A stretch of 34,358 bases of DNA from a virus (lineage: Duplodnaviria; Caudoviricetes). Below the pieces are notes generated by a model. That model saw only the letters and a program-made list of their open reading frames with translations. It did no database searches and was not told the DNA's origin. The DNA is taken from the IMG/VR virus record IMGVR_UViG_3300034093_001339, positions 1 to 34,358 of that record; one strand, written 5' to 3'. Both the position numbers and the translations under genes were made by a program. Every line of letters begins with the position of its first letter. The first letter of the stretch is position 1. Shown here one piece after another: positions 3,318 to 9,249 of the stretch.

Positions 3318-3393
3318 GCTGCTATAGCTCAGTTGGTAGAGCACCTGATTAGTAATCAGGGTGTCGGGAGTTCGAATCTCTCTAGCAGCACCA
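3318..3393 (+). tRNA. trnT: tRNA-Thr(AGT)
   Basis: CCTGA-TTAGTAA-TCAGG arm, ACCA. Confidence 0.93.
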
Positions 3394-5510: not shown

Positions 5511-5622
5511 AATTCTGTTTACACATGCACAACAGCCATACCTAGCTAGGTGGTAGTGGAACTATAAGTATCAAGATACAAAAACACGTTCGATTCGTGG
5601 TTGTGCAGATGTAAACAGAATT
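5511..5622 (+). ncRNA. wrapper-stem RNA cassette, family 2 copy 1 (tRNA-like cargo)
   Basis: AATTCTGTTTACA-CA-TGCACAAC / GTTGTGCA-GA-TGTAAACAGAATT stem; T arm CACG-TTCGATT-CGTG. Confidence 0.7.
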
Positions 5623-6097: not shown

Positions 6098-6172
6098 GCC
6101 TCGGTAGCTCATTGGTAGAGCGTTCGCCTGAAGAGCGGAGCGTAGGGAGTTCGATTCTCCCCCTTGGCACCA
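6098..6172 (+). tRNA. trnF: tRNA-Phe(GAA)
   Basis: loop CTGAAGA; two acceptor mismatches. Confidence 0.85.
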
Positions 6173-6290
6173 TTACTTTGATGATACACTAGAGAGCAGA
6201 TAGCCTTTTGTAACTAAGACAACTCCGTAGGTTACAGACTTGAGCGCAGCATGGTTAGGGAGTTGCCGGCTAGTGTATCTTCTAAGTAAT
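6172..6290 (+). ncRNA. wrapper-stem RNA cassette, family 1 copy 2 (pseudoknotted cargo)
   Basis: ATTACTTTGATGATACACTAG / CTAGTGTATCTTCTAAGTAAT. Confidence 0.7.
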
Positions 6291-6690: not shown

Positions 6691-6691
6691 T

Positions 6692-6714
6692 GCGCTGGTA
6701 GCTCAGAGGCGGAG
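6692..6714 (+). pseudogene. orphan 5' fragment of tRNA-Lys
   Basis: GCGCTGGTAGCTCAGAGGCGGAG vs GCGCCGGTAGCTCAGAGGCAGAG at 6870. Confidence 0.75.
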
Positions 6715-6751: not shown

Positions 6752-6964
6752 ATGGTTGAAAAGTTAAATTTGTCAAAAGAAGAAATAGCAAAGATAGAAG
6801 AGATTAGAAAAAATCCTCCACCAATGACAGACTATGTTAGGCAATATATTGAAGCCTATAGAAAAAAATGCGCCGGTAGCTCAGAGGCAGAGCAGGGAGC
6901 TCTTAACTCCAAGGTCGAGGTTTCAAAATCCTCTCGGCACACCAAAATAACTCTTGACAAGTAA
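6752..6964 (+). CDS. hypothetical protein reading through tRNA-Lys(CTT)
   Basis: AAGGA SD; ORF track. Confidence 0.5.
   Translation: MVEKLNLSKEEIAKIEEIRKNPPPMTDYVRQYIEAYRKKCAGSSEAEQGALNSKVEVSKSSRHTKITLDK
6870..6944 (+). tRNA. trnK: tRNA-Lys(CTT)
   Basis: loop CTCTTAA; T arm GAGGT-TTCAAAA-TCCTC; ACCA. Confidence 0.85.
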
Positions 6965-7436: not shown

Positions 7437-7501
7437 CTCAGAGGCAGAGCAGGGGGCTTTTAATCCCAAGGTCGAGATTTCAAAATTCTCTCGGTTCACC
7501 A
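7427..7501 (+). tRNA. trnK: tRNA-Lys(TTT)
   Basis: loop CTTTTAA; T arm GAGAT-TTCAAAA-TTCTC; ACCA. Confidence 0.88.
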
Positions 7502-7602
7502 TTACTTTGATGATACACTGATACCGAAGGGCACGACGGTTTGGTTAGTACCCCTGATGCCGGGCGAATGGTTCGAATCCAACAGTGTATCTTCTAAGTA
7601 AT
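7501..7602 (+). ncRNA. wrapper-stem RNA cassette, family 1 copy 3 (tRNA-like cargo)
   Basis: ATTACTTTGATGATACACTG / CAGTGTATCTTCTAAGTAAT; TGG-TTCGAAT-CCA T arm. Confidence 0.7.
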
Positions 7603-7689: not shown

Positions 7690-7747
7690 ACTTCCGTAGC
7701 TCAACTGGACAGAGCACCACGCTACGAACGTGAAGGTTGGGGGTTCG
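7690..7747 (+). pseudogene. tRNA-Arg(ACG) truncated in the T loop
   Basis: D arm, CACG-CTACGAA-CGTG arm and GGGGGTTCG, then unrelated sequence. Confidence 0.85.
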
Positions 7748-7765
7748 CAAATGATAAATAAACAT

Positions 7766-8479
7766 ATGAACTATAAAAAACATTATGATTTATTAATCGA
7801 GCGAGCAAAGATAAGACAATTAACAGATTATGTTGAAAGACATCATATTGTTCCTAGATGTATGGGCGGAACAGACGATAAGTCTAATTTAGTAGAACTA
7901 ACGCCCGAGGAACACTATGTAGCACATCAGTTATTAGTTAAGATGTATCCAGAAAACGACAGTTTAGTTTATGCTGCTACTAAGATGACGGTGGCATCAA
8001 AGACAGTAAAAAGAAAAAACAAAAGATATGGCTGGCTTAAAAGACGCTATCAAAGTGTTTGTAAAAAAAGGATAGGAAATAAAAATCCTAGTTATGATCG
8101 TAGTTGGTATTATTGTCCAGAAACTTTAAATGAAGGAAAATTTCTATCAAGTAATATTCCAGCTGGTTGGATAAAAGGACGAAAATCAATAACTAAAGAA
8201 AACACTAAATGTTCTTCGTGCGAAACTGATACTAATAGTAAAAAATCTAAATGGTGTAATACATGTCGACGTATACATGGAAATTACAAAAAAGATGGTG
8301 CTAAAAAACAAGTTAAATCTAAAGATGCGTTTACTACAGAAGAAAAAACAAACGCATTAATAGACAATAACGGAAATATCCGCAAAGCGTTATTTTCGTT
8401 AGGATTAAATGATAGCGGATCACATTATAAAAAAATGAAAGAAATAAAGGCGTCTGTATACCCTCTGGCTACGAACTAG
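7766..8479 (+). CDS. HNH homing endonuclease (T4 MobE-like N-terminal HNH)
   Basis: ERHHIVPRCMGGTDDKSNLVELTPEEHYVAHQLL; C-terminal CxxC pairs; probable ATG 7766 after ATAAATA. Confidence 0.9.
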   Translation: MNYKKHYDLLIERAKIRQLTDYVERHHIVPRCMGGTDDKSNLVELTPEEHYVAHQLLVKMYPENDSLVYAATKMTVASKTVKRKNKRYGWLKRRYQSVCKKRIGNKNPSYDRSWYYCPETLNEGKFLSSNIPAGWIKGRKSITKENTKCSSCETDTNSKKSKWCNTCRRIHGNYKKDGAKKQVKSKDAFTTEEKTNALIDNNGNIRKALFSLGLNDSGSHYKKMKEIKASVYPLATN

Positions 8480-8529
8480 TTGAAAGGTTAACTGGACACA
8501 TGGGGGTTCGACTCCTCCCAGGCGCACCA
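8450..8529 (+). tRNA. non-canonical (strand-rewired) tRNA-Arg(ACG)-like RNA
   Basis: acceptor GCGTCTG/CAGGCGC+ACCA, T arm intact, anticodon hairpin precedes the D-loop sequence. Confidence 0.7.
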
Positions 8530-8591
8530 AATAGTTATAACGGACTTGGTTGTGTGCGAAACACGTAATACCAAGTTGCACAAACAGAAGC

Positions 8592-8720
8592 GATTCTGTT
8601 TTCACATGCACTATGGTTGGGGCCAAGCGGCTGGCCTGAATCCATAATACTCCTTGGGTGATGCCTTTCGGGAGCAAGCTAGGTTCAAATCCTAGACGTA
8701 GTGCAGTTGAAAACAGAGTT
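8592..8720 (+). ncRNA. wrapper-stem RNA cassette, family 2 copy 2 (tRNA-like cargo)
   Basis: GATTCTGTTTTCA-CA-TGCACTATG / CGTAGTGCA-GT-TGAAAACAGAGTT; T arm CTAGG-TTCAAAT-CCTAG. Confidence 0.7.
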
Positions 8721-8799: not shown

Positions 8800-9156
8800 G
8801 ACAACATTATATAGTGGTTCGAAACGTTATATGATGAGAATGCTTCCCACCCTGTGGAACCTCGGGGTGAGCAGATTGGCTTGCCACAGCGCAGGTGAAG
8901 GGGTAAAAGTCCCAATGGGGGTTCTGGGAATTAGTATTGATCCATCCTCTGATCCGCTAACTGATTCTAGATAAGGGGTTAGCCAAGATGGTGACGTCGA
9001 CCTTAGCTAAAGCTGGCGAAATATACAGGTCGTTAAACTGGCTACAACCTGAGTAGAAATAAACGTTGTGAAACTGCTCTCGAAATTCAAATAGGTGACG
9101 GCAATCACCTTAACTGGGAGACTACATACCGTTGTTTTGCCGAACTTTGGTGTAGT
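8800..9156 (+). ncRNA. candidate large structured ncRNA
   Basis: no credible ORF; back-to-back helices and a possible pseudoknot. Confidence 0.55.
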
Positions 9157-9157
9157 A

Positions 9158-9229
9158 GACTGTTTCGTCTAGAGGATAGGATAAGCCCCGTAAAGGGGCG
9201 AGACATGGGTTCGAATCCCATAACAGTTT
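9158..9229 (+). pseudogene. tRNA-like RNA with 5-nt anticodon loop, no CCA
   Basis: GACTGTT/AACAGTT acceptor, GCCCC-GTAAA-GGGGC, ATGGG-TTCGAAT-CCCAT. Confidence 0.7.
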
Positions 9230-9249
9230 TGCTCCTAGTTAGAAATTAT

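Follow-up and report, generated by a model that had tools for sequence, protein, structure and literature searches.

Within the tRNA array of the virus described here, one short gene holds the parts of a tRNA-Arg(ACG) in an order other than that of the cloverleaf, and the question that it raises is whether such a gene can encode a working tRNA. The window, by which we mean the whole stretch of 34,358 bases of this virus record, has 24 tRNA genes called by ARAGORN as an array in its first 11.5 kb, with phage replication genes downstream. In the gene at 8450-8529 the full chain runs, in tRNA numbering, 1-9, 22-45, AAA, 10-21, 46-76 (Table 1), the two inner blocks 10-21 and 22-45 being exchanged such that the anticodon arm comes first and the D-loop lies before the T arm. 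The anticodon hairpin starts just seven bases past the acceptor strand, the D-loop sequence AACTGGACA is found three bases 5' of the T stem, and the gene ends in ACCA, with CCA encoded in 93 of the 227 genes of the family described below. This order of elements is the one stated in the initial annotation of the locus, and the sequences which that annotation had reported as common to this rewired gene and to a broken canonical tRNA-Arg(ACG) upstream are present in both, AACTGGACA at 7703 and 8490, CTACGAA at 7722 and 8469, and GGGGGTTCG at 7739 and 8502.

Table 1. Features of the rewired gene and of the cassette that contains it (positions in the window).
Feature	Position	Strand	Remarks
Rewired tRNA-Arg(ACG) gene	8450..8529	+	80 nt; tRNA-numbering order 1-9, 22-45, 10-21, 46-76
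Acceptor stem 5' strand (1-7)	8450..8456	+	partner 8519-8525; 7/7 pairs (one G-U)
U8, A9, position-22 equivalent (U)	8457..8459	+	putative numbering
D-stem strand 23-25 (ACC)	8460..8462	+	entered straight from the 8-9 linker
C26, U27, 4-bp anticodon stem, loop, U43, 44, G45	8463..8482	+	
Anticodon stem, loop and anticodon ACG	8465-8468 with 8476-8479; loop 8469-8475; anticodon 8471-8473	+	
AAA linker joining 45 to 10	8483..8485	+	partly fixed by search patterns
D-stem strand 10-13 (GGTT)	8486..8489	+	
D-loop sequence 14-21 as junction strand	8490..8498	+	identical to D loop of remnant 7690-7747
A14, A15, G18G19 and A20	within 8490..8498; A15 8491, G18G19 8494-8495, A20 8496	+	
CAU linker (46-48)	8499..8501	+	U48 is the Levitt partner of A15
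T arm	8502..8518	+	5 bp, loop TTCGACT; T stem 5/5 paired
Acceptor 3' strand, discriminator A73, encoded CCA	8519..8529	+	A73 at 8526
Canonical tRNA-Arg(ACG) remnant	7690..7747	+	broken off in T loop; Rfam 24.2 bits, cut-off 29
HNH-type homing endonuclease ORF	7751..8479	+	242 aa from ATG at 7751; second ATG 7766

The expectation that tRNA scanners would overlook such a gene was correct, as it is absent from ARAGORN's 24 genes and has no Rfam match at E up to 1. ARAGORN misses 224 of the 227 family genes, and 3 of the 6 homologs tried reach the Rfam RF00005 cut-off of 29 bits (29.8-40.9), so that individual members may be recorded in databases as low-scoring tRNAs. A model of the family (R1) gives 91.8 bits to the gene, itself a member of the training set, and 23.8 to the next-best tRNA of the window; neither this model nor the scan found a second rewired gene in the window. 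The gene is also, as had been claimed, the only complete ACG gene in the window, which begins inside the tRNA array. Among the Arg codons of 15 ORFs in the window, CGU is used most (73/207).

The remnant, the endonuclease ORF and the rewired gene form a cassette, in which the last 30 bases of the ORF overlap the rewired gene. The ORF corresponds to the phrog_655 homing endonuclease (E 1.1e-49) and had no Pfam match. The window's twin aside, 4 of the 61 ACG loci, L016, L025, L065 and, frameshifted, L007, have the same order of Arg(ACG) remnant, endonuclease and rewired gene; the endonucleases of these cassettes show 53-58% identity, the end of the ORF overlaps or adjoins the rewired gene, and the remnants differ in acceptor sequence and in the extent of their decay. 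From these sequences, it would seem that a single cassette inserted into canonical genes more than once, each time bringing the rewired gene as their substitute. The only close relative of the endonuclease found was that of the window's twin, distant ones coming from loci already in the set, and none of 8 loci examined in search of a syntenic relative had an unbroken canonical Arg(ACG) following Ile(GAU). We considered the remnant at 7690 as the 5' exon of an intron-split tRNA and rejected this, the window having neither a complementary 3' acceptor with CCA nor an Rfam intron match. An ATAAATA motif at 7752-7760, and also at 1184, 3395 and 9340, stands before the endonuclease and other ORFs and resembles the T4 late promoter consensus; the GTTCGCAA motif before it is kept in the cassettes even where the remnant has decayed. 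A leucine parallel is present at 1130-1698, where a tRNA-Leu 5' fragment (1130) is followed by a His-Me/HNH ORF and a full tRNA-Leu(UAG) at 1615 that the ORF end overlaps. The overlap with the HNH ORF, together with the three motifs in common with the upstream remnant, would suit a pseudogene or a recombination scar left by insertion of the endonuclease. Since most family members have no adjacent endonuclease, homing would explain the locus in the window and not the family, and it is these homologs, hundreds of them with compensatory changes, that refute a scar by their conservation and leave that reading with next to no probability.

The extent of the family was established with a series of pattern scans. 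A pattern of the loop order (anticodon, D, T loop) found 79 viral loci, of which 61 pass a descriptor of the full structure, a proportion that argues against a chance match; one of these 61 ACG loci (L028) is identical to the window's gene and so is not an independent homolog. With the anticodon free and A20 kept, the scan yielded 119 stretches out of about 160 in viruses and 50 in bacteria, acceptor and T stem being present in 115/120 viral and 10/50 bacterial matches, and all six Arg anticodons occur among the rewired genes. A pattern excluding A20 covered 120 of about 790 viral stretches (10 of 64 parts scanned), and 105 of its 121 matches pass, with the anticodons UAU (82), GAU (15), CAU (7) and UAC (1). 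The estimated totals of about 160 Arg-type and 790 other viral stretches, and about 3100 in metagenomes, include some chance matches. The combined scans gave 227 distinct rewired genes, 183 of them 80 nt long, after one descriptor match among 228 (L081, AGA) was dropped as a canonical Thr gene. Among viral matches to the linker signature, none of the 46 with G or U at position 35 is a rewired tRNA, and 2 of the 9 with A or C at both 35 and 36 are Val(UAC). Leu(NAG) and Ser(GCU) were covered by the partial A20-excluding scan and the metagenome sample, and the scans see forms with the linkers searched, other linkers being invisible to them; two weak matches to the model, L513 and L514, have GCU and AUG loops and possibly represent more remote rewired forms. 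To the proposal that homologs with the same order would be absent if the reading were wrong, the scans thus answer with 227 distinct homologs and a further 94 held-out ones. On this comparison the gene at 8450-8529 is no one-off Arg(ACG) gene but a member of a family with Arg, Ile, CAU and Val anticodons. Most common in the family is tRNA-Ile(UAU) (L251-L370, L517-L635), with 82 of the 105 genes from the A20-excluding viral scan and 57/108 held-out metagenome genes; it bears on the reading of AUA by phages without lysidine.

The family is widespread and mostly unannotated. At 57 of 61 ACG loci at least 2 canonical tRNAs lie within 3 kb. The window's gene matches 48 cultured-phage records, including 44 Streptomyces phages and 3 Microbacterium phages, and the Ile query also matches a Kehishuvirus (crAss-like) record of Bacteroides. 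Cultured phages carry rewired genes unannotated, and in the GenBank entry of Streptomyces phage Mildred21 one such gene is labelled tRNA-Phe and one tRNA-OTHER; the GenBank tRNA labels of phage A3Wally (L081, MZ150783.1) give the wrong amino acid for many anticodons. In bacterial genomes, 10 of 50 matches to the Arg-type pattern are real, 7 with canonical tRNAs within 1.5 kb and one beside a GOLLD RNA, surroundings which point to prophages or islands rather than housekeeping genes. A rewired Arg gene lies at 1464-1541 in the isolate genome of Mesorhizobium sp. Root552 (L209), and another at 1462-1541 in Achromobacter anxifer (L218), where a tRNA array, a GOLLD RNA and a tmRNA end are also seen, with a further region at 2119-2595. 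A single UCU query found no match in plasmids.

The structure of the family was drawn from its homologs, since a single sequence gives no convincing fold of the core: in single-sequence folding 8450-8529 does not adopt the rewired model (z -0.86), and the 36-nt core alone forms an ACC/GGU helix weakly (-3.4 kcal/mol, z +0.49). In the alignment, all seven acceptor columns have compensatory changes and the anticodon stem is 99.8% paired. The true D-stem consists of ACC 8460-8462 with GGT 8486-8488, and its three pairs are present in all 183 of the 80-nt genes, at positions on which the structural descriptor made no demand. The columns 8460:8488, 8461:8487 and 8462:8486 each have at least 4 pair types and are among the top covarying columns. 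On 118 diverse aligned genes this stem is paired in 354/354 cells with 50, 39 and 20 two-sided changes, while slid-register controls drop to 34-46% paired; RNAalifold recovers the ACC/GGT helix unaided, and when a tree is built with those columns left out, the strands of the helix change 26, 35 and 18 times at its three pairs, in each case jointly. The pairing of CCT with AGG originally proposed across the anticodon arm is wrong by a shift of register, 53 of its 354 cells being broken and two of its three pairs never compensating. The covariation sought in homologs was therefore found for the displaced D-stem and not for the CCT/AGG register, in place of which ACC/GGT covaries.

The tertiary core is conserved in the same manner. 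The Levitt pair 15:48 is A:U in 150, G:C in 23, G:U in 5, A:C in 4 and G:G in 1 of 183 genes; on the 118 genes it has 19 two-sided changes and 5 unpaired cases, and its joint changes on the tree number 25, against 41 if the two positions were independent. Such covariation is a mark of an L-shaped core. U8, A14, G18, G19, C56 and A58 are near invariant, with the reservation that most search patterns fixed G18G19 and the T loop and left position 48 free, and the canonical tertiary bases U8-A14, R15-Y48 and G18G19/T loop are kept, as judged at the level of sequence from this invariance and the 15:48 covariation. U8 and A9 are invariant in 183/183 genes and U22 in 180/183; C26 and G45 are likewise invariant, a putative pair without covariation, and the AAA linker bases, partly fixed by the patterns, are kept in 182, 183 and 183 of 183 genes. 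The anticodon stem has 4 pairs, with U-U at 27-43 in 159/183, where the canonical stem has 5 bp, and the anticodon loop, partly fixed by the patterns, has 7 nt with invariant U33 and A37. A secondary structure of just two hairpins and a weak thermodynamic fold could also describe a working tRNA with one long anticodon helix and an undocked, loose D-loop, as in D-armless mitochondrial tRNA-Ser. The near invariance of U8, A14, G18, G19, C56 and A58 and the covariation of 15:48 argue against a loose loop, as does A20, which tracks the Arg anticodon and would be sensible only if the loop sits where the arginyl-tRNA synthetase reads it, and we regard an undocked loop as very improbable.

The identity marks of the family were followed in a held-out metagenome scan (3 of 64 parts), with a pattern that left free the anticodon, positions 20 and 48, the D-stem, the T arm and the acceptor. 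T arm and acceptor were present in 115 of 119 matches, giving 108 distinct genes, 94 of them new, in which the D-stem pairs hold in 108, 107 and 108 of 108; 15:48 is A:U or G:C in 98 and neither in the other 10. Position 20 is A in all 28 held-out genes with Arg anticodons and in none of the 80 A35 (Ile/Met-type) genes, all 80 of which have A73. The bacterial Arg identity set is A20, C35, U/G36 and A/G/U73, with the Ile marks tabulated likewise, according to Table 1 of PMC9976931, and the window's gene has this Arg set as A8496, C8472, G8473 and A8526. That the marks follow the anticodon suggests that selection ties synthetase recognition to the anticodon, as in working tRNAs.

If the rewired genes serve in decoding, they may stand in for canonical genes, and in the 50 longest of about 90 candidate records, taken whole, we looked for ACG and UCU genes of canonical order and for additional rewired genes, counting canonical Arg genes only where confirmed by ARAGORN. 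A canonical UCU gene is present in 2/28 records with a rewired UCU gene and in 12/22 without (Fisher p 0.0003), and a canonical ACG gene in 2/29 with a rewired ACG gene and 5/21 without (p 0.12, not significant), p values that overstate the scarcity because the records are related and often partial. For records at least 90% complete the corresponding counts are 0/11 and 2/5 for UCU, and 1/9 and 4/7 for ACG. Phages with a rewired gene thus mostly lack a canonical gene of the same anticodon, clearly so for UCU and without significance for ACG. Mildred21 carries rewired ACG, UCG, UCU and Ile(GAU) genes at 62-101 kb and, of canonical Arg genes, only CCU. There are counter-cases: Mildred21 retains a canonical Ile(GAU) beside the rewired one, canonical ACG is found next to rewired ACG in A3Wally, G014 and G027 (in A3Wally they stand on either side of an HNH gene, the canonical one first), and canonical UCU next to rewired UCU in G009 and G047. 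Two canonical-order Arg(UCU) genes, L453 and L457 in G018 and G028, have an odd, short anticodon stem, and in G018 the acceptor of this gene almost matches that of the rewired ACG gene in the same record, which hints at exchange from one form to the other.

These counts bear on whether the RNA acts on the ribosome or off it, as a decoy or regulator that mimics tRNA and is recognised by synthetases or by tRNA-cutting defence nucleases. A synthetase-binding mimic would also keep identity marks, some phages retain the canonical gene alongside, the anticodons found are limited to Arg, Ile, CAU and Val, and host defences that cut tRNAs exist (PMC13096335). The scarcity of canonical UCU genes beside rewired UCU, the five cassettes in which a rewired gene takes the place of a broken canonical one, and the complete set of six Arg anticodons with invariant U33 and A37 are nevertheless poorly explained by a mimic, and we consider a decoy unlikely, if the least unlikely of the alternatives. 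The same base pairs would covary in either order if the transcript were cut and re-joined to give an ordinary mature tRNA of canonical order, and an RNA ligase gene is present in the tRNA regions of Mildred21 and A3Wally. Such processing would need three cuts and three joins inside 40 nt and would leave an 8-nt variable region, and hardly any variation is seen in the linkers where the blocks are newly joined; we give it only the slightest credence. Small shares of three metatranscriptome runs were covered, in contigs that show neither transcription nor RNA ends; no joints were seen among the matches listed in them. One contig of X3 equals 8450-8531 without difference, starting at 8450 and running into other sequence, and comes from a relative, maybe from DNA.

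A decoding tRNA of rewired chain order is therefore the reading that we prefer. It is quite probable that the gene at 8450-8529 encodes a charged tRNA that decodes, a working tRNA of undescribed architecture. The L-shaped tRNA with a permuted core, missed by scanners, that the initial annotation proposed draws support from the homologs, the covariation of D-stem and 15:48, the identity marks and the ARAGORN misses. The backbone would pass from the acceptor through the anticodon arm, D-loop and T arm back to the acceptor, likely reaching the usual L shape, with a 3-bp D-stem closing around the anticodon arm. In tRNA structures the canonical core is built on the triples 9-12-23, 45-10-25 and 46-13-22; the new links 9-22, 45-10 (via AAA) and 21-46 would join neighbours in this core, so the fold could survive the swap. 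Transcription would occur within the array, followed by processing, and RNase P, EF-Tu and the ribosome would mostly contact parts that the swap leaves as they are, the acceptor, T arm and anticodon loop. The host TadA would convert A34 to inosine, and the tRNA would likely be charged by the host arginyl-tRNA synthetase and read CGN codons (CGU/CGC/CGA) in place of the broken upstream canonical gene.

A homing cassette likely brought the gene to this locus as a replacement copy. During co-infection, canonical Arg(ACG) genes of the other phages would be targets of the HNH enzyme, and the reordered blocks would escape its cutting yet keep function. A possible second advantage is escape from tRNA-cutting defences, one of which cuts a tRNA variable loop (PMC13096335). 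More broadly, we put forward, with belief and doubt in equal measure, that this is a second tRNA backbone topology, by which phages of several bacterial phyla use non-cloverleaf Arg, Ile and Val tRNAs with ordinary host charging, the commonest being the scanner-missed Ile(UAU), and that selection favours rewiring because homing endonucleases then fail to find the gene, or host defences that cut tRNAs by reading the canonical core fail to find the RNA.

Canonical tRNA-Arg(ACG) (RF00005) and the rewired gene share the 7-bp acceptor, 5-bp T stem, TTCRA loop, 7-nt anticodon loop, discriminator and CCA, together with U8, A14, G18G19, R15:Y48 and A20. The rewired gene differs in having no D hairpin between the acceptor 5' strand and the anticodon arm, in a D-stem that encloses the anticodon arm, in a three-way rather than four-way junction and in the AAA linker. 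It is predicted to work like tRNA-Arg, yet it departs from the cloverleaf order by which RF00005 is defined. Circularly permuted tRNA genes, which occur in red algae, green algae and an archaeon, also encode tRNA parts out of order, with the 3' half before the 5' half and processing restoring the cloverleaf. The acceptor strands of the rewired gene (8450, 8519), in contrast, lie in normal order at the ends, and with only the inner blocks swapped no circular permutation gives this order. Y RNAs (YrlA, RF02553) form a tRNA-like elbow from reordered D and T elements; to our knowledge they have neither an open acceptor end with CCA nor anticodon-linked identity marks, and 8450-8529 has no Rfam match. 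Allo-tRNAs resemble the rewired genes in being non-standard, present in bacterial and phage tRNA clusters and missed by scanners, and differ in having altered acceptor/T-stem lengths (8/4 and 9/3) with the cloverleaf order kept (PMC5389517); the rewired family is 7/5 with changed order. D-armless mitochondrial tRNA-Ser(AGY) also has no D hairpin at the usual place (PMC9976931), whereas the rewired gene keeps the D-stem pairs and D-loop sequence, relocated and not lost. For the cassette, SegB of phage T4 may serve as a precedent for an endonuclease gene among tRNA genes: according to PMC2330249 it is a free-standing homing endonuclease in a tRNA cluster which cuts tRNA T-arm motifs and spreads itself together with flanking tRNA genes. 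Unlike SegB (GIY-YIG), the window's enzyme is HNH (phrog_655), its ORF occupies a truncated tRNA gene and brings a rewired one to replace it, and its cutting is predicted. Full-text searches, covering the main text of papers largely outside the subscription journals, found no description of the architecture, and the available part of PMC7886860 contains none.

The array holds further unusual features. A tRNA-Lys 5' fragment (6691-6714) is followed by a short ORF and a full tRNA-Lys(CUU) at 6870-6944, both Lys genes having unusual D and T loops. Three elements, 933-1038, 6172-6290 and 7501-7602, each directly follow the CCA of a tRNA and have complementary ends common to all three, which could close a stem around unrelated middles; none has an Rfam match, and that at 7501-7602 contains a T-loop-like hairpin. 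Neither ARAGORN nor Rfam reports the tRNA-like gene at 2465-2541, a cloverleaf with CCA; its anticodon loop is readable as UCU or CUA (a possible amber suppressor), and a similar loop occurs in G031, L450. Uncalled tRNA-like folds with an acceptor-like stem and T arm lie at 8608-8708, where there are also a long D-like arm and a long extra arm, and at 5526-5610. Long non-coding stretches at 8820-9240 and 1790-2110 are probably structured, and a weak tRNA-Leu(UAA) call at 9157 may belong to the former. The tRNA-Thr at 3318-3393 has an AGU anticodon, an A34 tRNA of a kind rare in bacteria.

By the comparison of its members, the rewired family is a real, conserved and new structural variant of tRNA. 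As far as we know, cloverleaf order has been treated as universal for cellular and phage tRNAs, the known exceptions losing an arm or being permuted at the level of the gene. Because cultured Streptomyces, Microbacterium and crAss-like phages carry rewired genes, the family is directly testable at the bench, and it offers a new scaffold for engineered tRNAs. A family that would make the contacts of the L shape on a different path of the chain could reveal what synthetases, modification enzymes and the ribosome actually require. Phage tRNA inventories change with the recognition of genes that are unannotated or mislabelled in GenBank, and the tools behind statements about codon usage in phages, or about Arg and Ile tRNAs that they lack, are blind to rewired genes.
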